A stretch of DNA of 64,000 bases from a virus, in IMG/VR virus record IMGVR_UViG_3300011980_000002, positions 128,001 through 192,000 of that record, one strand, 5' to 3'. The notes below the pieces were generated by a model. It made no database searches. It was not told the origin of the DNA and saw nothing but the letters and a program-made list of their open reading frames with translations. Shown here one piece after another: positions 36,719 to 54,548 of this stretch. The position numbers were made by a program, and so were the translations under genes. Within the stretch, counting starts at the first letter, position 1, and the number at the start of each line of letters is the position of its first letter.

Positions 36719-37366
36719 ATGAAATTTACAAAAGAGACAGTTGATAGCTTTTTAAACGAAATTAATGGTAATTTAAAGAATATGATACCAATAGCTAATA
36801 CTATGTACGATAAGTTAGAATCATACCACTATCTATGGTTACATGGTGGTTATAGAAACTATGATGATTTACCATTTATTGTGGATTTTGCTGAGAAAAT
36901 TGGTAGTATGTATGAAGCAGAATGTATGAATCCCAAAAGCAATATATACATATATGGAAGTCTGGAAAATGACATACTAGCTATTATGAGTATAGCTTGT
37001 GAAATTGCGGATACGATTATTGATAGTGTTAAATTTGATAGTTATTATGAGTTTTATAAAACTCATAAAAAAATATCGGATTTATTAATAGAAAATTGTA
37101 ATATTTTCTCACACCTAATAGATACTGATATTAATTTTGTAGCCAGTAAGTTTCATATGGAAACTGACGAATTATTAGAATTATTAGCAGATTTTAAGGA
37201 ATTGTGTATAGTCAATATACAACCACATGGTAAAAAAAGTAAAATCTATTTTAAGTTAGGTACTAATTTTTACAAGTACGCATATTACATAGGTTATAGA
37301 AATGGTGAATTGTTAGAAACCCCTAATTCTATTAGTATTCAAGATGAGGAAGGTAATGATGATTAA
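36719..37366 (+). CDS. tandem paralog family member 2
   Basis: See member 1. Leader AAAGGAGAATAAGAAATATG. Confidence 0.7.
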   Translation: MKFTKETVDSFLNEINGNLKNMIPIANTMYDKLESYHYLWLHGGYRNYDDLPFIVDFAEKIGSMYEAECMNPKSNIYIYGSLENDILAIMSIACEIADTIIDSVKFDSYYEFYKTHKKISDLLIENCNIFSHLIDTDINFVASKFHMETDELLELLADFKELCIVNIQPHGKKSKIYFKLGTNFYKYAYYIGYRNGELLETPNSISIQDEEGNDD

Positions 37367-38009: not shown

Positions 38010-38023
38010 AGGAGAAAAGAAAT

Positions 38024-38686
38024 ATGAGCAAAGATATTCATTTTCCAACAGTTCCAGTATTTAAAGGTGGAATTAAAACCGAAGAAGATTTTAAAGTATT
38101 TAAAGATTTCACTCGTAAATTAAGAATTAACAAATCTAAGTATATTGATACTATGATAGATAAATTTATGTCTATTGTGGATAAGAAGTCATATTATGAT
38201 TTTATAAACTATTTCAGAAAAGATATTATTAAAATTATGGATATTATAGAACATATAAACTTCCCTATATCCGGAATTCAATATAATATGAAGTATGTTG
38301 AATGTGATTTACCAATATTAAACATGTTTGTTAGAAAGTATGTAACATTACAAGATTCATCCAATAGAGTATTAGCTGGAGTCATATATGATAAAGAGAA
38401 AGATAATATATTGAAAATATATACTCTTTTAGAAAAATACTATTCTATGGATTTATTCCCAACAGTATCATCTTTATCAAAACATAAAAAAATCAAAGAT
38501 GTGGTTATTACTAAAGATGAGTTCAATTCATTAAATAAATTGCTATTTGATTATGGGGTATTGGAATTAGAATTTGATAGTATCAAGTATTCTATGAGTG
38601 CTATTGGATTAGCTTTTTATGATTACATAATACCTATTATATTTAGAAAAGATAACTATTCAACTTTAATGTCTAAATATCTATAA
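38024..38686 (+). CDS. tandem family member 4 (more divergent)
   Basis: 220 aa, leader AAAGGAGAAAAGAAATATG. Comparable length and C-terminal pattern (DEFNSLNKLLFDYGVLELEFDSIKYSMSAIGLAFYDYI). Confidence 0.6.
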   Translation: MSKDIHFPTVPVFKGGIKTEEDFKVFKDFTRKLRINKSKYIDTMIDKFMSIVDKKSYYDFINYFRKDIIKIMDIIEHINFPISGIQYNMKYVECDLPILNMFVRKYVTLQDSSNRVLAGVIYDKEKDNILKIYTLLEKYYSMDLFPTVSSLSKHKKIKDVVITKDEFNSLNKLLFDYGVLELEFDSIKYSMSAIGLAFYDYIIPIIFRKDNYSTLMSKYL

Positions 38687-38700
38687 ACTAATCTTTAATT

Positions 38701-39753
38701 ATGATAGAGAATGTACAAAACTTCAAAGAAAGATTTATAGAATTATTTATGTTAAGAGATGTCTGGAAACAGAAAGTATCTGATTCACAATATCGGACTA
38801 GATGTGTATATTGTGGAGATAGTAAGAAAGATTTCAATACCGGACATCTCTATATTAAGTGTAATAAAGACGATAGGTCACCTATTGTCTATAATTGTTT
38901 TAAATGCACAGCATCTGGTCTAGCAGATGCTGATTTTTTTAAATTGTTAGATTTAGATGATTTAATCTCAGATAATTCCTTTGATAAATTAAAGAATAAT
39001 TTTAGTAAAGTAAATAATTCTCATAGAGTACAAGATTTTATTTATGAAAATTATTCATGTTTTAACAGTAATAAATATCTTTATAAATTAGACTATATAG
39101 AAAAAAGAATAGGAGTTAAATTTAATAATGAAATGGTTAATAAATGTAAAGTAATCACATCTATTAAGGAATTTCTTAAATATAATAAAATTAAAGATAT
39201 TACTGTGGATAAATATATATTGGATATATTAGACAGAGATTATATTGGATTTTTATCATATGGGAATACACATATATTCTTAAGAGATATAACTAATACT
39301 CATAAATTATCGTGGGTTAAATATAAGATATATAATAGTAATACTTTAGTAGTTTATAATATCAGTAATAGTATTAATGTATTAACCACAGAAGATATTA
39401 CTATAAATATAAGTGAAGGTATAATAGATATTTTATCAATTGCTTATAATCTTAATAATAATAGAGATAATGTAATTAATTTTGCTAATGGTAGTAAATC
39501 TTATTTTAACTTAATCAATCATATAATTAAATTAGGTTTAGTAGGAAATAATGTAACTTTAAATATCTATAGTGATAATGATAAGAAATTCAATAATGAT
39601 AGTAATTATTATGATACTACCATTAATTACTATAAAAAGGTATTTAGGTATTACAAAATACTATTTAAAGAAATTAATGTATATTATAACATACTGAGAA
39701 AAGATTGTGGTGAACGTATAGAAAATATATCTTTAAGTAAGCATAAAATATAA
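38701..39753 (+). CDS. DNA primase (zinc ribbon + Toprim)
   Basis: CVYCGDSKKDFNTGHLYIKCNKDDRSPIVYNCFKCTASG (CxxC...CxxC, T7 gp4/DnaG-type). Toprim glutamate INISEGIIDILS and DxD IYSDNDK. Confidence 0.75.
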   Translation: MIENVQNFKERFIELFMLRDVWKQKVSDSQYRTRCVYCGDSKKDFNTGHLYIKCNKDDRSPIVYNCFKCTASGLADADFFKLLDLDDLISDNSFDKLKNNFSKVNNSHRVQDFIYENYSCFNSNKYLYKLDYIEKRIGVKFNNEMVNKCKVITSIKEFLKYNKIKDITVDKYILDILDRDYIGFLSYGNTHIFLRDITNTHKLSWVKYKIYNSNTLVVYNISNSINVLTTEDITINISEGIIDILSIAYNLNNNRDNVINFANGSKSYFNLINHIIKLGLVGNNVTLNIYSDNDKKFNNDSNYYDTTINYYKKVFRYYKILFKEINVYYNILRKDCGERIENISLSKHKI

Positions 39754-40515: not shown

Positions 40516-40548
40516 AAATCTTAATTAATTTTAGGATTTATTTTTTTT
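40516..40548. terminator. weak AT-rich bidirectional stem-loop between convergent genes
   Basis: AAATAAATC ... GATTTATTT stem followed by T8. Confidence 0.4.
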
Positions 40549-43351
40549 ATATTAATAAATTATCTAAATCCAGTTTTATTGTTACTACTGTATTATCATG
40601 GAATTTCTTCATGTTAAGGTTTGTTAGAGTAGTTGCAATTTTAGATGATGATAATCCAACATTCTCTATTCCTAACTTATAGAATAATTGTCCCATACAT
40701 CTACTACATAATTTTTTTCCAATACACATCATTGGAGATCTCATTTTAACAGTTTTACCCATATAAGAATCCATATTTTTTTCATCTAATAGTATATGCT
40801 TACCATTACTACCAATGATATATCTATACATTACAGATTTAGCTGTTCCTTTATTAATCTCATATGGTATATATCCTTTAGTACCACAATCACTTTCTGG
40901 GTCAGGATTTAACATCTCTGTTTGCATTGCTGCAAGTAACTCTTTTGATAGATATCCTGTATCAGCAGTAGATACCGATTTAGAATATGCACCAATAACA
41001 TTAGAGTTAGCTGAAGCAGGTATATCTTTCTTAGCCATTCCATCCATTAGCGAATTAGTAATTATATCATAATTACCGGTTGCTGGATTCTTAACGACTC
41101 CTCTATACATAGCAATATTCTTTAAGTTATTCTTAACAGAACCTCTTGCTCCTGAGTCATATAAGTCCATACCAACATCACCTTTAAAGATTTCTTTAGT
41201 TTTATTTATCAATGCTTTCTCTATCTCTTCAGATATTTCAACATCACCTTTCTCTAATCTATCTTTATATTTCTCTACTAATTCATTTTTTAACTTAGAT
41301 ACTTCAGGTGGAGTTTTAATTGTTGGTAATGTATAAGAAGATGTTACAGTAGCATGCATCTTTAATCCAAACCAATCTCTATAGTCTATCCATCTATACA
41401 TATCAGTTACGGTAATTCTATCATCCATTAAAGCTTTAGCTATAGTATCTTCTATTTTACCTTGTTTACCCTCAGTTACAGGTTCATTAATATATCCAAT
41501 TATATCAGCGTAGTTATTTAACCATCTCTTATATAAACCGGTATTAAGTACATATCTACCTACAGTAGTTTCTATAGCTGTTTTAGTAGGGGATTTAGCT
41601 GCCGGTAATGTAAATTTATCGGTAGGTTTAAACTTAGGAATACCATTAAGTTTTCTTGTGTTATCATCTTTAAGATTTGCAAACATCATATTCATAATAT
41701 CGGCATTAAAATAATCTGGTGATTTTTCTAATAACCAATCTATATCTGTTTTAGAAGCTGTTTTATCATCAGATGAAGGATTCTTAGTTAATGAATAGAA
41801 AGTCTGTACTGGTTCACTACCAACAACTTTCATATTCTTCCCATCCATATTAAGAATATACTTCTTACTATTAACATACTTTTCCAATTCAGCATTTGCT
41901 TCTTGTGTCCATAATAACTTAATTGTCATTTGATCACCATCATAGTCTCCACCGAGTCCTAATAGATAAGATGGTGAGAACTGTTGTGAGTCTATAAACA
42001 TAGTACCAATATGGTCCATATCCGCATCAAAGTCTACAACAGGATACCATTTGTAAATAGTATTATTAGTTCTCATTATCTGTGTTTTAGTAGTAGATAT
42101 AACTCTTACTTTACACATGAAAGAACCATATTGGTCGTTAAGAGGATATCTTGTACACATGGCATACTTATCTCTTACTGAATCCTCACAAGCCATATAT
42201 AATAAATCCGTTACAGTCATATATCTGTTTGATATTGTAGAATCTTCTTGATTTACATTGTTAAGAGTACTTCCAACAAATGTCATATACATCTTATTAG
42301 GACCTTCTACTGGTATTTCTATCTTATTAAATCTCGACTCTGGATTCTTAATATAATTATTAATCATTCCATCTATATACTTATCATCAAAATATGCTTC
42401 CGGAGATATTAACTTTACAGGTTCAAATTCACCTTTACTATTAATAAAAGATTTACTGTCTTTATTCTCAAATACCTCTTTCTTAAAGAAATTTTTTACC
42501 CAGTTAAGAACAAATGGATATGCTAATACACATATCTGTGATATAGGTAATCCACAATAACCTAGACTTATCATTTCGTCATCCGGATTATTACTATGGT
42601 AATTTTTAGATGTGATGACAGTTCTTGTAGAGTTACATACGGATTTACCCATTAGGTATTTTCTTATCATACCATTTTTCTTTTCTATCTTAGTCTTAAA
42701 ATATTCATATATTTCCATAATAGAGTTTTGAATTATTTTATTACTAGCATGGAATTGGAAATTAAATCCATCTTCTTCTTTTACAGTGGATACATGTCTT
42801 ATAATTCCGCTATATAAAGTATTTAACTCATTAGTAGTTCCACCACCTTTACCATCAGAGATAACATCTCTATATGATACCGGTATTACTACTAATTTAT
42901 TCATGAATAGTATTTTCTTAGGTATTTTTAAGAAGTCTAATCTTTCCTGTCTTATTCCAATCGTAACATCATTATCTTCGTCAGTATCCCATTTAATCTT
43001 TTCCCAATTATTATATAAAAACTCTATACCAGTATCGGCATCCATATCTTCACTTGGGACTAATTTACCACTTTTATCTATCTTATAATAAGCTGAACCA
43101 TCTATAATCTTATCTACATTTCTGAATATAGATTTAACTGCTTTATATGCATTTGGGTGAAAAAAGTGATTATGTAAATCTATATAAGCCATTCTATTTT
43201 TTCTATCATATAATGATATACCAAATATCTCATTAGATAATAATCCATCACTGTGAGGAATTCCACCTCTTTGGAAAATTACCGGATTAGATACTTCTTG
43301 TAATCTATTAATTTTAACAAACTCATCTATATCTAATAAATCTAGTTTCAT
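40547..43351 (-). CDS. phage multisubunit RNAP beta-prime-like subunit (regions A through G, contains the catalytic DxDGD)
   Basis: N-terminus GLLSNEIFG...RMAYIDL..FHP. LMGKSVCNSTRTVITS (beta-prime LLGKRVDYSGRSVI). TRYPLNDQYGSF (NRAPTLH). Catalytic GGDYDGDQMTIKL (NADFDGDQM). DSGARGSVKN, TADTGYLSKELL and CSRCMG...KKFH. Confidence 0.9.
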   Translation of the reverse strand: MKLDLLDIDEFVKINRLQEVSNPVIFQRGGIPHSDGLLSNEIFGISLYDRKNRMAYIDLHNHFFHPNAYKAVKSIFRNVDKIIDGSAYYKIDKSGKLVPSEDMDADTGIEFLYNNWEKIKWDTDEDNDVTIGIRQERLDFLKIPKKILFMNKLVVIPVSYRDVISDGKGGGTTNELNTLYSGIIRHVSTVKEEDGFNFQFHASNKIIQNSIMEIYEYFKTKIEKKNGMIRKYLMGKSVCNSTRTVITSKNYHSNNPDDEMISLGYCGLPISQICVLAYPFVLNWVKNFFKKEVFENKDSKSFINSKGEFEPVKLISPEAYFDDKYIDGMINNYIKNPESRFNKIEIPVEGPNKMYMTFVGSTLNNVNQEDSTISNRYMTVTDLLYMACEDSVRDKYAMCTRYPLNDQYGSFMCKVRVISTTKTQIMRTNNTIYKWYPVVDFDADMDHIGTMFIDSQQFSPSYLLGLGGDYDGDQMTIKLLWTQEANAELEKYVNSKKYILNMDGKNMKVVGSEPVQTFYSLTKNPSSDDKTASKTDIDWLLEKSPDYFNADIMNMMFANLKDDNTRKLNGIPKFKPTDKFTLPAAKSPTKTAIETTVGRYVLNTGLYKRWLNNYADIIGYINEPVTEGKQGKIEDTIAKALMDDRITVTDMYRWIDYRDWFGLKMHATVTSSYTLPTIKTPPEVSKLKNELVEKYKDRLEKGDVEISEEIEKALINKTKEIFKGDVGMDLYDSGARGSVKNNLKNIAMYRGVVKNPATGNYDIITNSLMDGMAKKDIPASANSNVIGAYSKSVSTADTGYLSKELLAAMQTEMLNPDPESDCGTKGYIPYEINKGTAKSVMYRYIIGSNGKHILLDEKNMDSYMGKTVKMRSPMMCIGKKLCSRCMGQLFYKLGIENVGLSSSKIATTLTNLNMKKFHDNTVVTIKLDLDNLLI

Positions 43352-43409
43352 TTAATTTAGCCTGATTACTCCTTTCTAATTTTCTATTAAAAATCTATCT
43401 AAAGGTTAA

Positions 43410-43451
43410 GTCAATGTTTTTAGCCCTAAAAACCCTATGAAAAACATTGAC
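43410..43451. promoter_or_regulatory. 12-bp perfect inverted repeat carrying back-to-back TTGAC boxes in a divergent intergenic region
   Basis: GTCAATGTTTTT-N18-AAAAACATTGAC. The minus strand reads TTGACT-N17-TTTAAT ahead of the beta-prime gene. The plus strand reads TTGACC-N17-AAAAAT ahead of 43497. Confidence 0.4.
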
Positions 43452-43496
43452 CTAAATTAAAACTAAGATAAAAATATTATACAGAAAGGATTTATT

Positions 43497-44741
43497 ATGG
43501 ATATACAAGTTCCTGTATTTAGTAAATATGATGATAATGATATGAGTGATTTACTATTTACTGAAGCCTCCGGTGCAACAACAATAGTAAAGACATATCT
43601 CGAACCATTCGTAACGAATACATTAAATGACCCAATTAAAGATAAAAAATTTAAAAAATTAATATCAGATTTTATTAATAGAAATATGACTGAGTTAAAT
43701 AAATCTGGACCAATTAATCTTATTGCTGTTACTGATATAGATAAGGATAATTTCTTTAATTTATTCGGTATTAATAAAAAAGAACTAATTTCTACCATAG
43801 CATCTGCTACAAGTAAAATTAATGATAAAGCTAATTGGAAACTTATACAACAAAATCCATTATTCTCATTATTATATATGGCTATAAGACATTATATAAT
43901 TAAGAAAGATGAAAGTGGAATTAAAGCTGGAATTACTATGTATGCATTAGCATCTTATCCATCAGTATTTTCTTTATTCTTTAAGCATGGAGCTAAGGAA
44001 GATGTTATGGCTTATACGATAGATAATTTAACAGAGAAATTTACAATTAAGAAAGAAGGTACTATCTTTAAGACTTTAATATCTTCTATAACCGGTTCAT
44101 TTGCTTTCTTAAAGAAAGAATTTATCGGAGCAGATGATGTGGAAATTGTAAGATGGGTTACGAGAATAAGAAATGACCAGAAATCATTAATTAAGAAAAT
44201 TGCTAATCTTTATTATGAAAATGATAAAAAGGGATTAAGGATATTAACACAGACAGAAAACTTTGGTGATGGTAATATGATACAAGATACATTGAATAAT
44301 AGTGGTATTGTTGAAAATATTACTAGAAAAGTAGCACAGGCTATGATTATCAATGGTGTTGATATGGTAAGGGCTAGTGCAGCCGCTAAATTTGCACAAA
44401 TATCTATGTCAGATTTAAGAATATATCTTACCAATATGGTAATAGATAAGAAGGTTGGAGAAATATCTAAATTTATAGAATCTGTGTTATTCACATTTCT
44501 ATATATAGACAACTATCAAGCTCATCAGATTAATGACAGAGTATTTTTATCATTTGCCCTGAATTTATTCAGGAGAACTAATAGTAAAGATAACAATATT
44601 GTTACAATAAGGACTTTATTAGATAAGTGGTCTGATGATTTAGGAATACATGATAGATTTAAAAGAATAGCTTCCCAGATTAATTATAAGAAGGGATTAT
44701 TTATGTATATCATATTATGTATACAATATCACAATAATTAA
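43497..44741 (+). CDS. hypothetical protein, divergent from the beta-prime-like gene
   Basis: 414-codon ORF with AGAAAGGA RBS. Confidence 0.7.
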   Translation: MDIQVPVFSKYDDNDMSDLLFTEASGATTIVKTYLEPFVTNTLNDPIKDKKFKKLISDFINRNMTELNKSGPINLIAVTDIDKDNFFNLFGINKKELISTIASATSKINDKANWKLIQQNPLFSLLYMAIRHYIIKKDESGIKAGITMYALASYPSVFSLFFKHGAKEDVMAYTIDNLTEKFTIKKEGTIFKTLISSITGSFAFLKKEFIGADDVEIVRWVTRIRNDQKSLIKKIANLYYENDKKGLRILTQTENFGDGNMIQDTLNNSGIVENITRKVAQAMIINGVDMVRASAAAKFAQISMSDLRIYLTNMVIDKKVGEISKFIESVLFTFLYIDNYQAHQINDRVFLSFALNLFRRTNSKDNNIVTIRTLLDKWSDDLGIHDRFKRIASQINYKKGLFMYIILCIQYHNN

Positions 44742-45244
44742 ATATAATTTATAAACTATTTATTAATCATATTTAGAATATTTGATTATGGGTTTTTCGA
44801 TTATATAAACATTTTGCCAAATTGAAAAATCATGAAAGAAATATTCTCCGTTAAAAAATGATTTTCTTATTATATAAAAATCTAAAAGTAAGTATTATAT
44901 AAGGTCTTTGTTAATTTATGTATATTTTTGCTTAACATTGGTTCGTGGTTTTATGGTCGTAATTTATTACACATTTAAAAGATTCCCGCCTGTCTCAAAA
45001 ATTTAAATGAAATATAATTGCGTCATATTTTGTTTTTAATAGAGACCATGATAATACACTATCAACACACTTTAAGATTATGATGAAAGAATTTCATTTT
45101 TTATTAAGTATTGTATACAGATACTTTAGACATTATAGCCTGTTGTGTAAGCTCATGGGTTGAAACCTTCAAAAAATAGATAAGAAATAAATATAAATAA
45201 ACGCTTGAGGCTACGCAAGTTAAAAGACTCTTACGAAGAGATGA

Positions 45245-45268
45245 GATTATGTATTTAAATACATAATC
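45245..45268. repeat. 24-nt perfect palindrome GATTATGTATTTAAATACATAATC
   Basis: Exact self-complement read directly from the sequence, inside the 668-bp ORF-free region. Confidence 0.9.
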
Positions 45269-45359
45269 AGTAGCAGATAAGAAACACGGTTCTTCTTTAT
45301 TATTATTTTACGAAATTCCCAAGTCTATTAAATAAATTCTAAATATGTTAAAATTAAGA

Positions 45360-45394
45360 AATACCAGAATATAGATAATCTATATTCTGGTATT
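45360..45394 (-). terminator. terminator of the minus-strand gene 45410-46681
   Basis: 15-bp stem AATACCAGAATATAG / CTATATTCTGGTATT, 16 nt downstream of the minus-strand stop. Confidence 0.75.
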
Positions 45395-45409
45395 CTTTGT
45401 AGGCGATTT

Positions 45410-46681
45410 TTATCCTTTGATATCAAATAAGGTTTTTACTAAAGTCTGTATATAGTTAAAATTAATACAGATATACATGGTATATGTATATAATCCATAT
45501 TTATCATTATTAAACTTAATATTATAATTATCCCAATCTATTTTATAATCTTTATTTTCAAATAATAATACACCTTGTCTTCTTACTTTAATATCTATTA
45601 AATCAAATAATGGTAATCCATTCTTTAAGTGGTAATTAACCGCTTCTCTTATAGATGTATTAATAACTTCTCCAAAATCTACATCATCGTTTTTCTTCTC
45701 TAATCTAAATGATACATTTGTAAATAAATTCCAACCATTCTGAAGATTTAAATCTTCTTTTAACATTACATCTGTATATGTCGGTATAATAATATCTCTA
45801 CTATCAAATTCTTTATTAATAGGAATATCTGGTATTTTCTTATTAGAGAATAGATAATATAATCCTGTAGTAAAGAATTCCATTCTTACAGAAAATGTAA
45901 TCTGATAATCTGTAGTTGTATAACCTGATTTTTCCCCATCATTACTACTTAATGAACTTAATAAAGTATCTATTTTAACCGGATAATATCTATAGAATTC
46001 TTTTAATCTACTTCCACCTTGTAATTTATAAGTAATTGGGAATATGGAATGGGAATTCAAATAAGTTAAAAATCTTGCAGTAGTTCCATCTTCATCTACA
46101 ATAGGAATACCTGTTATCTTACTAATTGTATCCATCATAGACGGAGAAAGATAAGACTCTAAAAATGTATTTACATCTTGTGGGTGATTAAATACAGTCT
46201 TATTTAGTAAATAATCCATAAAGTTCATTTGTTCCATTTTCGTAGATAGTATTATTATTACATCAGCATACATAATACTTCTGTTTAATTGGAATCTTAT
46301 ATCAAAACCATTACTATCATCTCTAAAGAATGGCATTAATGCTCCCATATCATGAGTAAAATGTAATCCTAATCTTGGTTCCAATAATGCTGTTCCCTCT
46401 AAAAATCTTGAGTCATCAAAATCTACTCTAGGAGAAATTGCAAATATAGGTCTTTCTTTTACTTTAAATGATTTAGGTGTGCTTATAATTTGTCTATGAG
46501 CAATTTTACTATTAACATGTATAGTCTTAAAGAAATTCTCCGGAAATAAATTAATTAACCAATTCTGTATAAAGGCTATTGCGTTACCATATGTGTGGGA
46601 AGATGAACACATAAATTCAGCCTGTTGGAATGGTTTTACCATATGATTTTCTATTATAAGATGGTCATCATGTTCTATCAT
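45410..46681 (-). CDS. hypothetical protein
   Basis: 423-codon ORF with GGAAAGGA RBS on the minus strand. Confidence 0.7.
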   Translation of the reverse strand: MIEHDDHLIIENHMVKPFQQAEFMCSSSHTYGNAIAFIQNWLINLFPENFFKTIHVNSKIAHRQIISTPKSFKVKERPIFAISPRVDFDDSRFLEGTALLEPRLGLHFTHDMGALMPFFRDDSNGFDIRFQLNRSIMYADVIIILSTKMEQMNFMDYLLNKTVFNHPQDVNTFLESYLSPSMMDTISKITGIPIVDEDGTTARFLTYLNSHSIFPITYKLQGGSRLKEFYRYYPVKIDTLLSSLSSNDGEKSGYTTTDYQITFSVRMEFFTTGLYYLFSNKKIPDIPINKEFDSRDIIIPTYTDVMLKEDLNLQNGWNLFTNVSFRLEKKNDDVDFGEVINTSIREAVNYHLKNGLPLFDLIDIKVRRQGVLLFENKDYKIDWDNYNIKFNNDKYGLYTYTMYICINFNYIQTLVKTLFDIKG

Positions 46682-46819
46682 CAGTTTTGTTTATGTCCTT
46701 TCCATTTATATTTTTTCTAATATATGAGATTTATATATTTGTGTTCTGATATAACTAATAGTAATTAATTGATATTAGCACAAAATAATAAAATCTATAT
46801 ATAGAAAGGAACTAAGATA

Positions 46820-47131
46820 ATGAAAATTTTTATTAGTCAACCAATGAAAGGTTTGAGTAGACAAGAGATAGAGGATACTAGAAATAGTATTATCGCAGGA
46901 TTGAAGAATGAGTATGGTGATGATGTTGAGATACTTGATACATTCTTTGTTAATCCTGAAGAATTTGGGCTTAGTAAATTATCTAAGCCAATAGAATTCT
47001 TTGCTAAGAGTATAGAATATTTAGCAAAAGCTGATAAGGCTTATTTTGCTGAAGGTTGGGCAAATACTAGAGGTTGTGCATTAGAATATCTCATATGTGA
47101 AAAGTACGATGTAGAAATAATTCATGATTAA
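46820..47131 (+). CDS. DUF4406-like / nucleoside 2-deoxyribosyltransferase-fold protein
   Basis: MKIFISQPMKG (I-x-G-P-M-x-G-type start) and YFAEGWANTRGCALE (GW-x-x-S-x-G-x-x-x-E); about 100 aa. Motif-level call only. Confidence 0.45.
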   Translation: MKIFISQPMKGLSRQEIEDTRNSIIAGLKNEYGDDVEILDTFFVNPEEFGLSKLSKPIEFFAKSIEYLAKADKAYFAEGWANTRGCALEYLICEKYDVEIIHD

Positions 47132-47162
47132 TTAGATTATAATTAAGAAAGGTTGTCAATAA

Positions 47163-48383
47163 ATGAGTACATTAGTCGCAAAGACTGGATTATTTACAAT
47201 TAGAGCTAATTTTACTAATAACTTAGTAAAGATATTGGAATATGCTTCAAGGACTTGTTATAATTCTTATGATAAGATAGATATTGATACTTGGAAAACT
47301 CATATTACATCAAGAATTAAAAGTAAGCATGAGTCTGTTATTGAGCATGGTAGATTTGCTGTTATAATAGATTATTCTGTGTTTGATATATTTCATTTCG
47401 ATGTAGAAGATGTCTATAAAGAAGTTGAAGTTATCAATAGGATAATGGCTGAAAGCAATTCTTTAATAAGATATGCTAAAGAAGATTATTACTTAATTAA
47501 ATATCCTAAAGTACCTATAATATCTTTATCGGGTAATATGAAAATGTGGAGAGATTTAATTAAGTTTATATTTACTAATAAATCAGAATATCTATCCAGT
47601 ACAATGAGATTTATCATAAAGATATTTGCTATATATGATAAAAAGTATAGTGATGTATTTGGATTAGATATACCTGAATTAATTAAATATAAACCAGTAT
47701 CTCTTGAAGGTAATTTATTTAATATCCCTAATGATAATATTATAGAAAATATTACTACAAGAGATAGATTAAATGATATAGAGAAGGATAAATTACCTAA
47801 GATATATGACAATAATGGAATTACTTCAAGACTAATTAATTTAGACCATTTTGGTAGAGGATTGTTAATAGAACCAGATATTCCATCACATATATTAGAG
47901 TATTTAAGAGACCATGTGTTAGATATAAACTCTGTAACTTATGTAATAGACTTACCAAGAGCTATATCATTACAAGAAGCAAGACATAGAATAAATTCTA
48001 TATCTCAAAGGTCTCAAAGATATGTTAATGAGTCAATAGAAGATTCTACATATTATATACCAGATTATATAGATAAGGATAAGAAGTATAAATTGGACAA
48101 TGGTATAGAAATATCGTATGATGAATATTTTAAATTATCTTTATCTTTATATAATGAATTAATTAAAGATAAAATAAAGAAAGAAGATAGTAGGTTTGTA
48201 TTACCTAGTGGAATGAATACTACTATGATAATAACTAAACCACTACATACATTACCTCATTATTTCTTTGAAAGATGTGCTAAAGGAGCACAGAAAGAGA
48301 TAAGAGAACCTGCTATAGCATTAAGAGATTTATTAAATACATCATATAACTATGTAACTGGTGAAGATAATAAATTATTTTAA
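47163..48383 (+). CDS. thyX: flavin-dependent thymidylate synthase ThyX (unusually long, 406 aa)
   Basis: HESVIEHG (HxSxxEH), the ThyX signature RHRINSISQRSQRY (RHRxxSxxxxSxRY) and C-terminal AQKEIREPA. Confidence 0.85.
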   Translation: MSTLVAKTGLFTIRANFTNNLVKILEYASRTCYNSYDKIDIDTWKTHITSRIKSKHESVIEHGRFAVIIDYSVFDIFHFDVEDVYKEVEVINRIMAESNSLIRYAKEDYYLIKYPKVPIISLSGNMKMWRDLIKFIFTNKSEYLSSTMRFIIKIFAIYDKKYSDVFGLDIPELIKYKPVSLEGNLFNIPNDNIIENITTRDRLNDIEKDKLPKIYDNNGITSRLINLDHFGRGLLIEPDIPSHILEYLRDHVLDINSVTYVIDLPRAISLQEARHRINSISQRSQRYVNESIEDSTYYIPDYIDKDKKYKLDNGIEISYDEYFKLSLSLYNELIKDKIKKEDSRFVLPSGMNTTMIITKPLHTLPHYFFERCAKGAQKEIREPAIALRDLLNTSYNYVTGEDNKLF

Positions 48384-48390
48384 TTAAAGT

Positions 48391-48438
48391 GAAGAAGATA
48401 ACCTTAGAAATTAATCTAGGTTATCTTCTTCTATTTTT
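48391..48438 (+). terminator. Rho-independent terminator
   Basis: GAAGAAGATAACCTAG-like 16-17-bp stem (GAAGAAGATAACCTTAG / CTAGGTTATCTTCTTC) followed by a T-run. Confidence 0.8.
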
Positions 48439-48533
48439 ATGTATTATGGTACAAAAATAAAAATTATAAGAATATAAATCATAAAGAGTAGTACGCACTT
48501 ATTGTGCACAGAACTTAAAATAAATATCCAAAC

Positions 48534-48559
48534 TAATTTATTTTACAGGAAAGGAAATA
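48534..48559 (+). repeat. 26-nt exact repeat copy 2 (orphan copy of the dut leader, no ATG follows)
   Basis: Identical to 1724-1749. It is followed by ATATTAATTC... with no start codon within normal spacing. Confidence 0.9.
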
Positions 48560-48627
48560 TATTAATTCTTTTTAAATCTTTATACCATTACCAAAATGTT
48601 TGTTTATGGCTCATGGGTGGAAAGTTT

Positions 48628-48646
48628 ATATACTATTAACTTGTAA
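48628..48646 (+). promoter_or_regulatory. phage promoter-like core ATATACTATTAACTTGTAA
   Basis: Family member, 40 nt upstream of the ATG at 48686. Confidence 0.5.
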
Positions 48647-48685
48647 CTGAAATATTATTACTTATGGAAAAGGAGAAAAAGAAAT

Positions 48686-49003
48686 ATGAGTAAGGATTTT
48701 AATTTATCCTATGTATCACCAATAAAGGAAGAAGTTGATAATGATAAATCTAAAGTAAAAATTAAGAAAAAAGATTCTTATTATAGTTATGATAAGATGG
48801 AGAAAGATGCAGATTGTATAGAGGAGTATCTTAATATCTTAGAGAGATTTGCTATTATAACAAATCTTACTCCAGAGAAATATAAAAAGGCTATGAAAAA
48901 ATCTAGGAAACTTGTTAAGTTGCTTAGAGAAGGGAAAGGAGAAAAAGTCTATGATAAAGATAGATATGATGAATATATGGCTAGGGTAGAAAATCATGAG
49001 TAA
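48686..49003 (+). CDS. hypothetical protein
   Basis: 105-codon ORF with leader AAAGGAGAAAAAGAAATATG. Confidence 0.7.
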   Translation: MSKDFNLSYVSPIKEEVDNDKSKVKIKKKDSYYSYDKMEKDADCIEEYLNILERFAIITNLTPEKYKKAMKKSRKLVKLLREGKGEKVYDKDRYDEYMARVENHE

Positions 49004-49475
49004 AAAGACCACTGTCTATATGTATTATCATAAAGATAGATTGTATGGATGGTCTACTAATAAAAAATTAAGTACTAATTTTGAATTACAGCGTAATATG
49101 GAAATTGTTAAGAGATTAGAGAAGAAGATGTCTATAGAAGAGTTAAATGCTATTAAGATTGCTTATAAAGATAATGAATTAATAGAAATTCCTTTAGACA
49201 CTTCTTCTAATAGCTATACTATGATAATTGGTACTTATTTAGAAGACCAGAAATTAAATCATGAGTATGAAAAATTCCTTATAGAGATAAGCAATATAAG
49301 TAAGATGTTAGATAGGTTATATATATCTGACGATAATGATACTTTTATAAAATACTGTAGGGAATTAATTACATGTAATTACTTAGAAAAAGATACTACT
49401 TCTAACAAGTTACATAACCAATTTACTGGGGATATGGTAAAAATGTTCTTTAATCTCTTTAAAGATACATTTTAA
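48996..49475 (+). CDS. hypothetical protein
   Basis: 159-codon ORF overlapping the upstream stop by 8 nt (ATGAGTAA coupling). Confidence 0.65.
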   Translation: MSKKTTVYMYYHKDRLYGWSTNKKLSTNFELQRNMEIVKRLEKKMSIEELNAIKIAYKDNELIEIPLDTSSNSYTMIIGTYLEDQKLNHEYEKFLIEISNISKMLDRLYISDDNDTFIKYCRELITCNYLEKDTTSNKLHNQFTGDMVKMFFNLFKDTF

Positions 49476-49522
49476 GATATTAACATAATAAAATTTATAC
49501 ACAGGAAAGGAAGATAAGAATT

Positions 49523-50080
49523 ATGTTAAAGACAAATATATTACACGAGGAAATTGTTACTGATGAGAATAAGCAAGAAATTCTCAATTTGGAATTGATA
49601 GGATTATCTGATGCACCATCAGATGTTCACGATGAGTACGATAATGGTGATATTATTGTAATATCAAAAGAAGATGATGCTTTACATATTAAAGCATTTG
49701 TAAACTATATTGGTATTGATAAGGTAACCGATTCTACTATGGCTTTAATTGCTAATAAAGTATCTAAAGCAGTTAAAGCTTCTAATAAAGGTAAAGCTAC
49801 TAAGATAAATAAAATAGTAGTTAGATGTAGTAATAAGAATATATGTAGTAGTAAAGTTATCTGTATTAATTCATTCTCAAGATGGATAGAGTTATATACG
49901 GATATTAAATTAATGATACCAAATTATTTATATGAAAAGATGTCAGCACCACAAACTACTGAAATAGAAATGGATCATCACTGTGGATGTGGTTGTCATC
50001 ATGATAAAGATAAAAAGAAAGATAAGAAAAAGGATAAGAAGAAGAAAGATAAGAAAAAAGCAAAGAAGAGTAAGAAGTAA
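49523..50080 (+). CDS. hypothetical protein with HHCGCGCHH cluster and poly-Lys/Asp tail
   Basis: 185-codon ORF. C-terminus MDHHCGCGCHHDKDKKKDKKKDKKKKDKKKAKKSKK. Confidence 0.65.
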   Translation: MLKTNILHEEIVTDENKQEILNLELIGLSDAPSDVHDEYDNGDIIVISKEDDALHIKAFVNYIGIDKVTDSTMALIANKVSKAVKASNKGKATKINKIVVRCSNKNICSSKVICINSFSRWIELYTDIKLMIPNYLYEKMSAPQTTEIEMDHHCGCGCHHDKDKKKDKKKDKKKKDKKKAKKSKK

Positions 50081-50112
50081 ATATTAAATTTATGAAAGGA
50101 TAGTTAGTTATA

Positions 50113-52173
50113 ATGGAACCTATCATAAAGCATATTTCCACAGAAGAAGAAATGAAGAAGCATATAAAACCATTATATGTAATTCATGATTATATGGATA
50201 ATGATGAATCATACATAGATTTTCAAGAGTCTATGTATGATTTGATTAAAGGATGTTTCGAATATCATAAACTGAGGACTTATCCGATTAATTTTAAATT
50301 CTATGAAAGTGATACAAAAGTTCATACATTAGAACTTAGATTTTTCGTAGTAAATTTATTTTATTGGTATCCTCTTATTAATTTAAACAAGTTTAAAGAT
50401 GTTATAGATGAGAGTTTTATCATTACTAAATCTACCGATGTAATTCATATTAATAAGTGGATTGATAATTTAATGATAACCTTATCTGATTATCATGTTA
50501 AACCTGTTGTAATAAACAGATACATTTCTACAGCCTTATATAATATAAGAAGAGTCAATGCAGACTTTTCTGAAATTATGGGACTAAACTTTGATTTAGT
50601 AACTATATTTGAAATGTATTGTAATAATAAGACGATACATGATTTGATGGAACTAAATATAGATGAGGAAATGCAACCTAATGAAATAGAGGAAATCTTA
50701 TTAGACGCAGAAGAGAAATTAATTAATGAATTAATGTCTATTAAGAATAATCCTATCGGGACAATATTAAGAAGTGGAACTGGTATTAAACATAAGCAAG
50801 CTGTAGAGTTCTTTATATCTAAAGGACTAATGCCTACAATAGATGGAACTACTATACCATTACCAATAAAGAATTCTACTTTAATTGGTGGTATTAGTAA
50901 AGCTTCTGATTTATATATAGATGGTACAGGTTCACGAAAGTCATTAATAATGTCTCATACGGTAATGGGTAATGCCGGTCATTTTGGTAAGATGTTAGCC
51001 GAATTAGCCAGAACTTTATCATTATCTAAAAGAGTTGCAGATTGTGGTACTAAGCATAGAGTTAAATACTTTGTAGAAAGTAAGAAATTCTTAAAGAAAT
51101 TAGATAATAGATATTTCTCATTAACTAAGAACGGGGAATTGGAATTACTTAAGGCTAATAAGATGGAATATCTTATTAATAAAGAAATTTATGTAAGATC
51201 CCCAGCTACTTGTTGTTTAGAGAATGAAGTATGTCCAAGATGTATGGGCAAAATAGCTACATTTAATTTCGATATTGCGGCAGGATTTTGTGCTTTCTTA
51301 ATTAAAGAAGTTACTAAAGTATTAGAGCAGAATATATTATCTACTAAGCATCTACTTACTACAACTTCAGAGAAGATTGAGTTTAATGAAACTTTCCATA
51401 AGTATTTCACATTATCATCTAATGAGGTTAATATTAATCTTAATGATAATGAAGAAATTGAATCTATTGAAGATTGGGTAATGATATTAAATAAAGATAC
51501 TATAGAGAAAGAAGATGATATGGATATGGAAGAAGGTCTTAATACATATATATCTGATGGTAAATTTACTGTTAAGAATATAAAGACTAATCAGACATTT
51601 GAAATATCAGAACTTGGAAAGAAGAATCTTTATTTATCAGATGAATTAATAGAATTATTTAAATCTAGTAGTACAATTAAATTCTCAGACTTGGATGAAA
51701 GTGCTCCACTATTTATTATTCAGATTTCTAATAATGAATTAACAAGACCATTGTATGAAATTATGGATATAATCAATACTAAGAAGAAAACTGACTTTGA
51801 AAGAACTATAGATAATATGGCACAAAGATTCGTTCAGTTATTAATAGAGTCTAAGATTGCTGCTCCTGCGGTATCTGCTGAAGTTATTATTAACAGATTA
51901 CTTAGACTTCCTGATGATATGTTTAATAGACCAGATTTCAATTCTGTCAAAATGCCAGATTATACTATTTCAACAAGTATGGCTTCTTTAGAGAGGAATA
52001 ACTCAGCTAGTGTTGGTTTAGCTTTTCAGTTCTTAAATAGGCAGTTAACTAACTTAGAGTCTTTCACTAAAAAGAGTTCACCATCATACCTCGACCCGTT
52101 ATTCAGAGAAGAGGTCTCAACTAAAAAGGTGAAGAAATTTATGAAATATATCAATAAAAAAGATAGGAAATAA
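50113..52173 (+). CDS. phage multisubunit RNAP beta-prime-like subunit, C-terminal polypeptide (regions E/F to H)
   Basis: RSGTGIKHKQAVEFFISKGLM (SGARGS..Q..QL.GMRGLM). DGTGSRKSLIMSHTVMGNAGHFGKMLAELA ([27 protein letters not shown]). CPRCMGKIA...STKHLLTT (C..CYG...TFH). Confidence 0.85.
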   Translation: MEPIIKHISTEEEMKKHIKPLYVIHDYMDNDESYIDFQESMYDLIKGCFEYHKLRTYPINFKFYESDTKVHTLELRFFVVNLFYWYPLINLNKFKDVIDESFIITKSTDVIHINKWIDNLMITLSDYHVKPVVINRYISTALYNIRRVNADFSEIMGLNFDLVTIFEMYCNNKTIHDLMELNIDEEMQPNEIEEILLDAEEKLINELMSIKNNPIGTILRSGTGIKHKQAVEFFISKGLMPTIDGTTIPLPIKNSTLIGGISKASDLYIDGTGSRKSLIMSHTVMGNAGHFGKMLAELARTLSLSKRVADCGTKHRVKYFVESKKFLKKLDNRYFSLTKNGELELLKANKMEYLINKEIYVRSPATCCLENEVCPRCMGKIATFNFDIAAGFCAFLIKEVTKVLEQNILSTKHLLTTTSEKIEFNETFHKYFTLSSNEVNINLNDNEEIESIEDWVMILNKDTIEKEDDMDMEEGLNTYISDGKFTVKNIKTNQTFEISELGKKNLYLSDELIELFKSSSTIKFSDLDESAPLFIIQISNNELTRPLYEIMDIINTKKKTDFERTIDNMAQRFVQLLIESKIAAPAVSAEVIINRLLRLPDDMFNRPDFNSVKMPDYTISTSMASLERNNSASVGLAFQFLNRQLTNLESFTKKSSPSYLDPLFREEVSTKKVKKFMKYINKKDRK

Positions 52174-52175
52174 CT

Positions 52176-52700
52176 ATGTTACTTAAAGCGTTATACTCGA
52201 ACGGACTAACACTATCTATTCAAAATAGTAATAAATTTGAATTAGATAGTACCATGTATTTATACATGAATACAATGAGAGATATAATATCTGATATTAG
52301 TATCAAAACCAATGGTTTAATATCATTGGTTAAATTTACAATAAGTGAGGAAATTGGTATTAGTATCAGATATTCTCCAACTAAAAGATTTACTATAGTA
52401 ATAGGAATAGATAATCTTAAAGAAATAAGTTCTATGGTTAAAATAGATATTGATTTAATCAATAAGTACTTTACCAATATAATAGATACTCTATTCTCTA
52501 TAGTATCTCAGAATAAATGTAACGATATTATACCAGATGATATGGAAGATGATGAATATACTCTTAAAATAGAAAATGCTATTAAAGAGATGGATAATAC
52601 CAGTTTCATTATGGCAATGACATTGTTTGGTATGATAGTTAATTTTAATAAAGCTATTATTAGTAGTAATGAATTATTAAATCAAAAACTTAAGAAATAA
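52176..52700 (+). CDS. hypothetical protein
   Basis: 174-codon ORF starting 3 nt after the upstream stop. Confidence 0.6.
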   Translation: MLLKALYSNGLTLSIQNSNKFELDSTMYLYMNTMRDIISDISIKTNGLISLVKFTISEEIGISIRYSPTKRFTIVIGIDNLKEISSMVKIDIDLINKYFTNIIDTLFSIVSQNKCNDIIPDDMEDDEYTLKIENAIKEMDNTSFIMAMTLFGMIVNFNKAIISSNELLNQKLKK

Positions 52701-52728
52701 AGATATTACAAGAAAGGAAATAAGAACT

Positions 52729-53307
52729 ATGAAGAATATAATGACAATGCAGGAAGTACTAGAAGCAATAAGAGCTAAAGCTAAACCTAATAAGGATGGT
52801 AGCGAAGGATTTACTTATAATAGATTTAACAAGAAAAGCTTTGAGAATCTATTAAGGGCAATGCTTAATGATACAGATGTAAAGATAGGTACCATTAAGG
52901 TTAAGAATAATGAAGTATCATCTAAAGAAGATATTATGGTTACACAAGAATTTCGTAAGTTCTTACAAAAGATTCTTAGAACTGCCGGAATAGATGCTGA
53001 AGACAGTAAAGCTATATTATCTAAAGATTTTATAATAGATAATGTGGATGGATTATATGAATTCTTTACCACTGCTATGTATATATACATGGACAATGGT
53101 AATAAGTTTGATATGATACCAACTGAAAACTTCAAAGGAAGTCTGTACATAAATAATGTAGCAGAAACTAAGAAGACTCAGGATGCAAAAAATCCTAAGG
53201 ACGGAAGTTCATTGGGTACATTTGAAACAACTAAGAAGACTCATAAGAAGTTATGTGTTAAGAGTAGTTGTCCAAGTTACTTGGTGAATAGAAAGAAGAT
53301 AAAGTAG
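52729..53307 (+). CDS. hypothetical protein (G/C-ending codon class)
   Basis: 192-codon ORF with AGAAAGGAA RBS. Confidence 0.65.
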   Translation: MKNIMTMQEVLEAIRAKAKPNKDGSEGFTYNRFNKKSFENLLRAMLNDTDVKIGTIKVKNNEVSSKEDIMVTQEFRKFLQKILRTAGIDAEDSKAILSKDFIIDNVDGLYEFFTTAMYIYMDNGNKFDMIPTENFKGSLYINNVAETKKTQDAKNPKDGSSLGTFETTKKTHKKLCVKSSCPSYLVNRKKIK

Positions 53308-53635: not shown

Positions 53636-53684
53636 AAAATAAAACCCTTATAGATATAATTTCTATAAGGGTTTTATTTTTTTA
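53634..53684. terminator. bidirectional terminator shared with the convergent endolysin gene
   Basis: AAAACCCTTATAG ... CTATAAGGGTTTT stem flanked by A-run and T-run. Confidence 0.85.
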
Positions 53685-54548
53685 TTTAACTATAGAAAAT
53701 ATTGATAGGTCTGGGGTTTTTGTATTATATTCTTTTTTCCATTTACCATTACAATCTACAAAATAATATAAGTTATTATCTATTACAGACTGTATGTAAG
53801 CATTAGTAGCCATCTTTCCATCTTCTTTAAGATAATATGTACCACTTGATAATTCTAACCATTGGGAAGATAACATATGGCAATTCTTATTATCCATATA
53901 ATACCAATCATCACCACTCTTAAACCATCCGGTTATTGTGCATCCATCAGCATCAAATACATACCATAATCCATTTATTTTTTTCCAATTATCTTTAACG
54001 ATATTTCCATCTTCATCATAGTATATCCACTTATCACCAACTTTAGACCATTCTTGATTATGGTTTTCTATACTTGGTGGAGTTTGTAATATTTTATCAT
54101 ATTTTCTCAATTCATATTGGTTTATTATATCTAAATTCAGTTTAATATATTTACTATCTGTAGCATATCCAGCTTCTTTTAATATTTGTAAATATTCTTC
54201 TGGTGTAAATACATTTTTTAGTTTCCTATATCTTGGTAAGGATATAAAATCAAAATATCCTTTAATACCATCTTCTAAAGTTCTATAAACTCTAAAATTA
54301 TCTTTAATCGTAGTTTTAACTCCTGGTGTATACTCTTCTTTAGTCTTAAGATTAACAGAAGCTCCTGTCCATTTAGAACCAGTCTTCATACCGAAGTAAT
54401 TATGATAAGAAGCAGCTAATTTGGTATTACCCCACCCACTCTCTAATATAGCTTGAGAAATAATAACACTTGCTACTTTAATACCATATTTCGGAGCATA
54501 TATAATTACATATTTAGATATATTATCAATAAATTCTTGTTTCGTCAT
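53682..54548 (-). CDS. endolysin: N-terminal GH73 N-acetylglucosaminidase + C-terminal cell-wall-binding (CW_binding_1 / choline-binding-type) repeats
   Basis: SQAILESGWGNTKLAASYHNYFGMK (GH73 catalytic-Glu segment). C-terminal repeats of the G-W-x-K-x-x-G-x-W-Y-Y-F-D-x-D-G type (WKKINGLWYVFDADGCTITGWFKSGDDWYYMD, GTYYLKEDGKMATN). Confidence 0.85.
   Translation of the reverse strand: MTKQEFIDNISKYVIIYAPKYGIKVASVIISQAILESGWGNTKLAASYHNYFGMKTGSKWTGASVNLKTKEEYTPGVKTTIKDNFRVYRTLEDGIKGYFDFISLPRYRKLKNVFTPEEYLQILKEAGYATDSKYIKLNLDIINQYELRKYDKILQTPPSIENHNQEWSKVGDKWIYYDEDGNIVKDNWKKINGLWYVFDADGCTITGWFKSGDDWYYMDNKNCHMLSSQWLELSSGTYYLKEDGKMATNAYIQSVIDNNLYYFVDCNGKWKKEYNTKTPDLSIFSIVK

Follow-up and report, generated by a model that had tools for sequence, protein, structure and literature searches.

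A fused virion-type RNA polymerase β′ gene beside non-virion RNA polymerase genes in an AT-rich relative of jumbo phage AR9

Jumbo phages that encode multisubunit RNA polymerases (RNAPs) are described as having a split β′ subunit in every case (PMC7598289, PMC7824862, PMC13282480), and the shared split site has been used in hypotheses of origin (reviews PMC7598289, PMC7824862). In the virion RNAP (vRNAP), the C-terminal-most part of β′ exists as a small virion protein of its own, the third β′ piece, of the SPN3US gp244 type (PMC7598289). We analysed a stretch of 64,000 nucleotides of viral DNA, called the window here (positions 128,001 to 192,000 of IMG/VR record IMGVR_UViG_3300011980_000002; G+C content 27.9%), and find that the general split after the double-psi barrel (PMC7598289, PMC7824862) fails for a β′ protein of 934 residues, which is encoded by one continuous open reading frame (ORF). 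The two-polymerase strategy itself is already known from phiKZ and AR9; the fused architecture of vRNAP β′ is new. Full-text literature searches, the coverage of which is incomplete so that an earlier description is possible, returned no account of an unsplit vRNAP β′ or of a Fusobacterium phage polymerase. Taking our explanation as a whole, we consider it very probable that the source of the window is an AT-rich phage of ∼220 kb, a member of the AR9/PBS1-related group of RNAP-encoding jumbo phages, and that this phage transcribes itself with two σ-less multisubunit RNAPs of its own, a vRNAP plus a non-virion RNAP (nvRNAP), one of which has a fused β′. The two β′ genes are:

40547 to 43351, minus strand: vRNAP β′, 934 residues (PHROG families 2986 and 2962 end to end; tblastn; AF2/Foldseek)
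50113 to 52173, plus strand: nvRNAP β′ C-terminal piece, 686 residues, with the bridge helix and trigger loop region and a phage-specific C-terminal domain (7s00_D; phrog_3015; tblastn)

Both ORFs lie exactly where the original prediction, made from the DNA sequence alone, had placed them, and all of the motifs that it listed are found in the translations: GGDYDGDQMTIKL, DSGARGSVKN, TADTGYLSKELL and CSRCMG...KKFH in the longer protein, and RSGTGIKHKQ, GSRKSLIMSHTVMGNAGHFGKML and CPRCMG...STKH in the shorter one. For the 934-residue protein, Pfam returns Rpb1 domain 2 at a sub-threshold 23.5 bits, and PHROGs returns two families, with E-values of 3e-85 and 1e-70. Both hold vRNAP β′ pieces, and together they span the protein: phrog_2986 covers residues 1–520 (profile positions 8–535 of 539) and phrog_2962 covers residues 540–931 (profile positions 37–430 of 433). 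Residues 462–837, from the catalytic loop to region G, align with residues 442–834 of Bacillus subtilis β′ (E 3e-9), and Staphylococcus aureus β′ also aligns. An AlphaFold model built from 68 homologs has a predicted local distance difference test score (pLDDT) of 83.9 and a predicted TM-score of 0.70, and Foldseek matches it to full-length single-chain bacterial β′ with an E-value of 2e-29 over ∼1090 alignment columns. Chance similarity is far from explaining these matches. A search of the PDB by both sequence and fold returned no phage vRNAP chain.

In tblastn searches, the C-terminal half of the protein matches an AR9/PBS1 gene at 220.8 kb, which the AR9 record calls ‘virion RNAP subunit’, and the N-terminal half (residues 1–523) has matches in Staphylococcus, Listeria and Bacillus jumbo phages. 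By these matches, the 934-residue protein is a vRNAP β′ in which the N piece and the middle piece are joined. It ends at region G because vRNAP β′ normally comes as three pieces, the last of them separate. Its orthologs include phiR1-37 g178, annotated ‘phage structural protein’, and 201phi2-1 gp275, the record of which notes ‘identified using mass spectrometry’; from such virion and structural annotations, we infer that the window protein would be packaged in the virion.

Could this protein instead be a relic, or a virion protein put to another use, with only the nvRNAP-type enzyme active? The sub-threshold Pfam scores, and the fact that no vRNAP β partner was found, would fit such a reading. 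However, the DxDGD of the catalytic loop (DYDGD, residues 469–473) is invariant in all 68 homologs, as are many further β′ positions, and columns are 57% identical on average; next to the vRNAP β′ gene of a more distant relative lies a β double-psi-barrel piece; and the window carries well-positioned copies of an AR9-like early promoter motif (see below), which in AR9 is read by the injected enzyme only (PMC5312081). A relic or re-used protein is very unlikely.

A multiple alignment locates the junction of the two fused pieces. The C-terminus of the AR9 and Staphylococcus N pieces maps to residue ∼524 of the window protein, after QTFYSLTK, and the N-terminus of the AR9 middle piece maps to residue ∼531, before DIDWLLEK; the linker between them (residues ∼524–531) is short, variable and poorly conserved. 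The remark in the original prediction that the split points do not obviously match those of phiKZ and AR9 is borne out, with the N and middle pieces fused here. In a collection of 50,697 phage records, tblastn with the 934-residue protein matched 313 records, all but four of them in two separate places; the full-length single-ORF counterparts occur only in Fusobacterium phages JD-Fnp1, JD-Fnp4, JD-Fnp6 and JD-Fnp7. In AR9, PBS1, Staphylococcus and phiKZ-like phages, the N and middle pieces are distant, separate genes. At the DNA level, 13 kb of the window had no near-identical match in the phage collection.

An ORF of this kind might be an artefact, a mis-assembly or a sequencing-error join of two genes, given that the sequence is metagenomic and that the described cultured relatives outside the Fusobacterium phages all have two genes. 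However, two assemblies made independently of each other (ENA ERZ27279295, a 223,074-bp contig, and Logan SRR1781914) both contain exactly this ORF, and an IMG/VR genome holds a continuous copy with 89% identity, which argues that it is no assembly artefact. In addition, there are more than 100 full-length homologs with 43–55% identity, the four isolated Fusobacterium phages have the same architecture, and the AF2 model has pLDDT values of 85–93 across the junction (residues 480–560). We therefore give an artefact next to no chance.

The fused architecture and its spread are seen directly in three surveys. A word-indexed search yielded 649 homologs; 95 of the best 120 are 900–950 residues long, 15 are 1150–1170 residues long, and every one with full coverage is fused. 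When 1.84 billion cluster representatives were searched exhaustively with HMMER, 2715 matches resulted, and the best 150 representatives were classified by architecture: 61 have the N piece only, 33 the middle piece only, 28 N + middle, 4 N + middle + C, and 2 middle + C, and a further 20 are fragments. Part of the fragments are exons; P0136, for example, starts at residue 494, with a GIY-YIG endonuclease ORF in front of it. The N piece of two more metagenomic representatives, P0204 (1170 residues) and P0234 (2211 residues), has a β double-psi-barrel module (Pfam Rpb2_6) fused upstream of it. These are β-β′ fusions and recall the rpoBC fusions of some bacteria.

Our third survey classified 78 vRNAP β′ loci in IMG/VR. 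A continuous fused ORF is found at 26 of the 78 and a fully fused form of ∼1165 residues at three. Another 22 are genuinely N-only; 21 of these have no middle piece within 1.5 kb, and one (L233) has a downstream middle-region match. The remaining 27 have an ORF that is broken at residue ∼466–485 or ∼802–823 with homology continuing beyond the break. Such breaks (L192–L195, L215–L228, L234–L235, L250–L256 and L014) fall in the catalytic DxDGD loop in the first case; breaks at the most conserved motifs are what introns there would give, and they look like recurrent insertion sites. At g178–g179 of Yersinia phage phiR1-37 (L010), the annotated vRNAP β′-N ends inside the catalytic motif GGDFDGKF and an HNH endonuclease gene comes next, so that this gene is probably interrupted by an intron rather than ended at that motif. 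The nvRNAP β′N homologs behave differently: all 103 are 293–558 residues long and none is fused to β′C.

The fully fused forms also bear on the third β′ piece. Their extra ∼245 residues align end to end (E 2e-24) with phrog_2926, a ‘virion structural protein’ family. Homologs of this stretch include a standalone AR9 virion protein, the structural protein g148 of phiR1-37 and genes of Staphylococcus phages that carry the annotation ‘viral RNA polymerase beta-prime subunit’. This fusion gives Rosetta-stone support to the small virion protein of the SPN3US gp244/AR9 type belonging to β′, and some phages make the whole vRNAP β′, third piece included, as one chain of ∼1165 residues. A relative contig of 227,013 bp, for example, encodes a fully fused vRNAP β′ of 1170 residues, an adjacent divergent β piece of 757 residues (phrog_3295) and a separate nvRNAP β′N.

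Contrary to reviews that describe one common split site, a large and mostly uncultivated clade of AT-rich phages makes vRNAP β′ as one chain, which shows the β′ split to be evolutionarily labile and not a fixed ancestral mark. The lysin type of the window and the source names of neighbouring matches suggest Firmicutes as likely hosts of the fused-β′ clade. A single-chain vRNAP β′ may also ease expression for structural work.

To follow the direction of change, we used neighbour-joining trees with simple distances and uncertain rooting, covering 101 taxa for the N region and 75 taxa for the middle region. One clade is entirely fused and includes the Fusobacterium phages. The fused clade of the window (51 of 60 bootstraps) includes one true N-only form, P0125, the gene of which is followed by an unrelated 780-residue gene; the placement of P0125 inside the clade is weak (19 of 60). 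Five sister pairs combine a fused and a split form (49–60 of 60 bootstraps). On the 101-representative tree, parsimony requires at least 12 changes, or 13 if only fusions and 24 if only fissions are allowed; it does not settle fusion versus fission.

The fused β′ could be derived, a recent joining of genes that were separate in the ancestor, and would then say nothing about the origin of the split. The smaller number of events in a fusion-only history and the split state of the Gram-negative outgroups speak for this, and we give it slightly less than an even chance. Against it, the split genes are non-adjacent (in AR9, in P0125/L013 and at 21 of the 22 IMG/VR N-only loci), so that a seamless fusion would need a rearrangement each time; fused lineages lie at the base of the Firmicutes/Fusobacteria group in the middle-region tree; and the N-only P0125 groups with the fused clade of the window, within the bootstrap limits given above. 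Homing endonucleases, moreover, lie beside or inside the vRNAP β′ genes of AR9, phiR1-37, 201phi2-1 and many metagenomic relatives, and such endonucleases and introns crowding these genes offer a route to fission. The non-adjacent split genes, the homing endonucleases and the basal fused lineages favour frequent fission.

Going one step further, an unsplit vRNAP β′ may have been ancestral for RNAP-encoding jumbo phages, the split after the double-psi barrel having arisen repeatedly by intron- and homing-endonuclease-driven fission and gene dispersal. We offer this tentatively and regard it as rather unlikely. If true, it would undercut both the shared split site as a mark of cyanobacterial origin (PMC7598289) and the view of fragmented subunits as relics from before the last universal common ancestor that were later fused into cellular β′ (PMC7824862), and the fully fused forms of ∼1165 residues would come nearest, among living forms, to what the ancestral gene looked like.

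The 686-residue protein belongs to the other enzyme. Residues 134–663 align with residues 119–630 of the AR9 nvRNAP chain PDB 7s00_D (E 3e-45), which makes it a homolog of AR9 gp154; it matches phrog_3015 with an E-value of 7e-54, and tblastn finds the nvRNAP β′ genes of AR9, PBS1 and Staphylococcus phages. Pfam returned nothing relevant for this protein. Residues 183–384 align with residues 696–913 of S. aureus β′. The protein had been said to run to the C-terminus of β′: the match to cellular β′ in fact ends near S. aureus residue 913 of 1207, and beyond that point the only match is to the AR9 nvRNAP β′C chain.

A split β′ is usual in these phages (PMC7598289), and the 686-residue protein lacks the catalytic double-psi-barrel domain, so the two β′-like proteins might be read as consecutive halves of one split β′ in a single polymerase. 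Such an arrangement is hardly conceivable. BLASTP aligns residues 738–889 of the 934-residue protein with residues 209–381 of the 686-residue protein (26% identity, E 2e-9), and the separate alignments to bacterial β′ place both in the same homologous region; they are therefore paralogs and not complementary halves of one subunit, as had been predicted. Each has its own AR9 ortholog, that of the longer protein belonging to the virion set and that of the shorter to the non-virion set, and a genome with 89–90% identity encodes a separate nvRNAP β′N. Since the window holds both an nvRNAP ortholog and a vRNAP ortholog, two polymerase sets are represented. This supports the predicted presence of two distinct phage RNAPs of the AR9/phiKZ kind; that both sets are complete in this genome goes beyond the evidence, as the β partners were not located.

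Two further nvRNAP genes lie in the window, one of them interrupted. We compared them with the AR9 nvRNAP set gp105/gp089/gp270/gp154/gp226:

3760 to 5152, plus strand: exon 1 of nvRNAP β-N (PDB 7s00_c, AR9 nvRNAP β-N, E 2e-42)
5153 to 6117, plus strand: intervening sequence of 965 nucleotides, probable group I intron (HNH ORF 5364-5960; core GAUAUAGUCUAA at 6093-6104)
6118 to 6527, plus strand: exon 2 of nvRNAP β-N, with the RGLHPSYL... motif (alignment to AR9 gp105 and L018)
33941 to 35554, plus strand: gp226-like fifth nvRNAP subunit, 537 residues (phrog_25005; tblastn match to AR9 ‘non-virion RNAP subunit’, E 9e-13)

The stretch from 3760 to 6527 had been described as a single β-like polypeptide. 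Its β-N identity holds, but it is not one ORF: two exons flank an intervening sequence of 965 nucleotides. An uninterrupted 600-residue β-N ortholog from IMG/VR (L018, 90% identical) reads ...TFKGPHSQGNSN... at the corresponding place, and when window base 5152 is connected to 6118, the translation also reads ...TFKGPHSQGNSN..., the same as L018 over the junction motif, in a spliced product collinear with the 600-residue ortholog. The restored junction peptide thus directly sets the intervening sequence at 5153-6117. It contains a free-standing HNH endonuclease ORF (5364-5960; Pfam HNH_3, E 1e-10) and is probably a group I intron. Its last base (6117) is G, as in group I introns, and the last base of the exon before it (5152) is C, not the usual U. 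Rfam gave zero matches at gathering threshold across the whole window; below it, Intron_gpI is found at 6009-6110 with 17.3 bits against a gathering score of 50 (E 0.13), only the P7/J8-7 core GAUAUAGUCUAA being matched. Sequence rules alone, with U required ahead of the 5′ site and G as the last base at the 3′ end, allowed 42 in-frame boundary choices, and the true site was not among them, since C is the final base of the 5′ exon; the intron-less ortholog settled the boundary.

In AR9, the fifth nvRNAP subunit gp226 confers promoter recognition (PMC5449584). The 537-residue gp226-like protein had no match in the PDB by sequence; with it, the orthology of four gene products to AR9 RNAP subunits is directly observed. 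The region around its gene (30451-39753) encodes a GroEL-like chaperonin, a hypothetical protein, the gp226-like protein and, farther downstream, DNA primase. This is the AR9 order, with ∼27% protein identity; in AR9, the primase gene adjoins the gp226 gene. The original prediction had included neither the intron in the β-like gene nor the gp226-like subunit nor the usual three-piece composition of vRNAP β′.

Neither nvRNAP β′N, the double-psi-barrel piece, nor a β C-terminal piece lies inside the window, and the small third vRNAP β′ piece (SPN3US gp244 type) had no match there. As a proxy for the rest of the genome, we used IMGVR_UViG_3300008575_000010 (210,162 bp), which is 89–90% identical in the compared proteins. 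It encodes the same fused 934-residue β′, an nvRNAP β-N without the intron, a separate nvRNAP β′N of 496 residues (phrog_2987, E 4e-58) and a standalone third piece of 239 residues (phrog_2926, E 5e-30), with virion-protein genes on both sides of the latter. The earlier expectation that the missing partners lie outside the window therefore holds, by proxy, for nvRNAP β′N and the third β′ piece; the β partners were not located. In more distant relatives, a β C-terminal piece was found close to the nvRNAP β′N gene. NCBI gives a Lachnospiraceae bin as the source of one nvRNAP β′N homolog.

Promoter motifs provide a second line of comparison. Experiments on AR9 defined two consensus sequences, AAATATATATTAT-N6-G for early promoters, which the injected vRNAP reads, and AACA-N6-TA/G for late promoters, which nvRNAP reads (PMC5312081); the motifs counted here match both. 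The window holds 14 copies of ATATA[A/C]TAT-N6-G where 4.0±2.0 are expected, and none of 100 shuffles reaches 14; a 17-nucleotide version of the early motif with three mismatches allowed is not enriched in the window. Ten of the matches are intergenic, on the plus strand and 49–69 nucleotides before a start codon. The candidates are:

48628 to 48643, plus strand: candidate early (vRNAP) promoter ATATACTATTAACTTG, 58 nucleotides before a start codon, at the head of a gene string (48686-53307) that contains the nvRNAP β′C gene
33875 to 33894, plus strand: AAATATATATTAT, the exact 13-mer of the AR9 early consensus, 62 nucleotides upstream of the gp226-like gene
2240, 7264, 9706, 12795, 16256, 16773, 18219, 35994, 40194 and 53395, and a T-variant at 20071, plus strand: further candidate early promoters (ATATAMTAT-N6-G), the set spanning 2240 to 53410
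43407 to 43420, minus strand: candidate late (nvRNAP) promoter AAAAACATTGACTTAA, which fits AACA-N6-TA, ∼55 nucleotides upstream of the vRNAP β′ start codon, on one arm of an inverted repeat
43442 to 43454, plus strand: mirror-image candidate late promoter AAACATTGACCTA, facing the divergent gene 43497-44741 (414 residues, phrog_2921)

Nine of the eleven further early candidates lie 49–57 nucleotides before a plus-strand start codon. The one at 2240 has its start codon 69 nucleotides downstream; the one at 18219 has its nearest ATG 85 nucleotides downstream and a GTG start (18271) 52 nucleotides downstream. For 33875-33894, A instead of G stands where transcription would be expected to start. 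The vRNAP β′ gene is among the few minus-strand genes of the window and, judged by its upstream motif, may be expressed late from an nvRNAP promoter. The divergent intergenic region in front of it (43352-43496) holds an inverted repeat, gtcaatgttttt...aaaaacattgac, with an outward AACA-N6-TA on each arm, an arrangement that is kept in L177, with 89% identity.

The same motifs were counted upstream of RNAP genes in relatives, with expectations taken from shuffles:

vRNAP β′: late motif in 34 of 55 (7.5±2.6 expected), early motif in 5 of 55 (2.6±1.6)
Third-piece gene: late motif in 24 of 47 (5.3±2.1 expected), early motif in 3 of 47 (1.8±1.2)
nvRNAP β′N: late motif in 2 of 64 (7.0±2.6 expected), early motif in 34 of 64 (3.4±1.8)
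β piece neighbouring nvRNAP β′N: late motif in 0 of 17 (1.6±1.1 expected), early motif in 7 of 17 (0.9±0.9)

Where the late motif precedes vRNAP β′ in relatives, 31 of 36 matches are 30–59 nucleotides upstream. The observed distribution is reciprocal, with early motifs before nvRNAP genes and late motifs before vRNAP genes; as a pattern of motifs, it fits a cascade in which vRNAP would transcribe nvRNAP genes and nvRNAP would in turn transcribe vRNAP genes. Which polymerase would read which motif is taken from AR9. Three further minus-strand genes (19055-20044, 24676-25449 and 45410-46681) lie amid plus-strand early genes and may be late (virion) genes. That at 24676-25449 weakly matches a virion structural PHROG; that at 45410-46681 has AACA-N6-TA ∼65 nucleotides upstream, and relatives keep its homolog close to the vRNAP β′ gene.

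We propose the following mechanism. The vRNAP, composed in part of the 934-residue β′ and a small third piece encoded elsewhere, would be packaged and injected, and would start at AT-rich early promoters of the form ATATA[A/C]TAT-N6-G. These would drive replication genes and the genes of nvRNAP, which may consist of the intron-containing β-N, the 686-residue β′-C, the gp226-like specificity subunit, and β′-N and β-C from outside the window. This nvRNAP would then read AACA-N6-TA late promoters, one of them before the vRNAP β′ gene, so that new vRNAP would be made late, for packaging. We infer that β partners exist in this genome.

Several observations weigh against this proposal. For neither enzyme did a β-type partner turn up, be it in the window or in the near-identical genome; one pattern scan for the β piece missed that genome. 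A consensus early motif is absent directly upstream of the nvRNAP β-N gene. The third piece could be linked to cellular β′ neither by profile, a PDB search giving nothing, nor by fold, Foldseek finding no significant match for its model, which has a pLDDT of 78. Virion packaging and promoter use are argued from analogy alone. Finally, AR9 nvRNAP requires uracil (deoxyuridine) in its promoter, and two genes of the window bear on this requirement:

1753 to 2181, plus strand: dUTPase
47163 to 48383, plus strand: ThyX with a long insert, 406 residues

Together, ThyX and dUTPase argue for thymine DNA, yet the late motif is of the AR9 type. With thymine DNA, promoter recognition cannot be identical to that in AR9, and an AR9-like late motif in an apparently thymine-DNA phage raises the question of how the gp226 homolog reads its promoter.

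Other genes of the window do not belong to the transcription machinery. A full-length polyphosphate kinase 1 of 660 residues, an unusual auxiliary gene for a phage, is encoded at 10809-12791 (plus strand; four Pfam PPK domains; PDB 1xdo, E 1e-83); this ORF had been a candidate RNAP piece and was rejected as such. A lysin gene (53682-54548, minus strand) encodes a glucosaminidase domain with choline-binding/cell-wall repeats, which confirms the lysin repeats noted in the original prediction, as the G+C content confirms its AT-rich composition, and is consistent with a Gram-positive host, of clostridial or streptococcal type. From 54695 to 64000 (plus strand), a Gly/Ala-rich ORF of at least 3,104 codons runs off the end of the window; it matches nothing in Pfam or PHROGs and does not resemble any RNAP piece, and small minus-strand ORFs within it are probably its shadows. 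A 570-residue ORF had no match among solved structures, chimallin included. A ligase ORF extends past the start of the window. PHROG scans of ∼19 small window ORFs found none related to RNAP, most being without any match, and neither chimallin nor PhuZ was seen within the 64-kb window, the scope of this search.

Among described systems, AR9 and PBS1 (Takahashivirus) are closest in organization. They share with the window two σ-less polymerases composed of β and β′ only, orthologous nvRNAP subunits (β-N, β′-C and gp226), the gp226 region having the same gene order, early and late promoter motifs of the same form, and RNAP genes with homing-endonuclease introns. The proteins are only 27–37% identical, however, and two features differ. 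In AR9, vRNAP β′ is made as three proteins from distant loci, whereas the window joins the first two in 934 residues, and AR9 has uracil DNA and a uracil-DNA-glycosylase inhibitor, whereas the window phage has ThyX and dUTPase.

The phiKZ-like phages (Chimalliviridae) share the two-polymerase logic and homologous β′ pieces with 22–26% identity. In contrast to the window, their β′ is split after the double-psi barrel in both enzymes (PMC7598289), and their late promoter is TATG rather than AACA-N6-TA. Within the phage collection, the fused architecture has its counterpart in the Fusobacterium phages JD-Fnp1/4/6/7, where a single ORF of 930 residues matches the window protein with 28% identity and 100% coverage; these phages also encode, separately, a match to the third piece's C-terminal part (residues 94–243, E 3e-4). 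Their genomes are 175–180 kb, and the fused gene is annotated ‘RNA polymerase subunit alpha’ or not at all. The split proteins of AR9 and Staphylococcus phages are closer to the window protein than the JD-Fnp proteins.

The cyanobacterial and plastid rpoC1/rpoC2 genes are split after the double-psi barrel, at the phage β′ split site (PMC7598289), and this is the position of the linker in the 934-residue protein. At this rpoC1/rpoC2-type position, the vRNAP β′ of the window is unsplit, whereas its nvRNAP β′ is still split.

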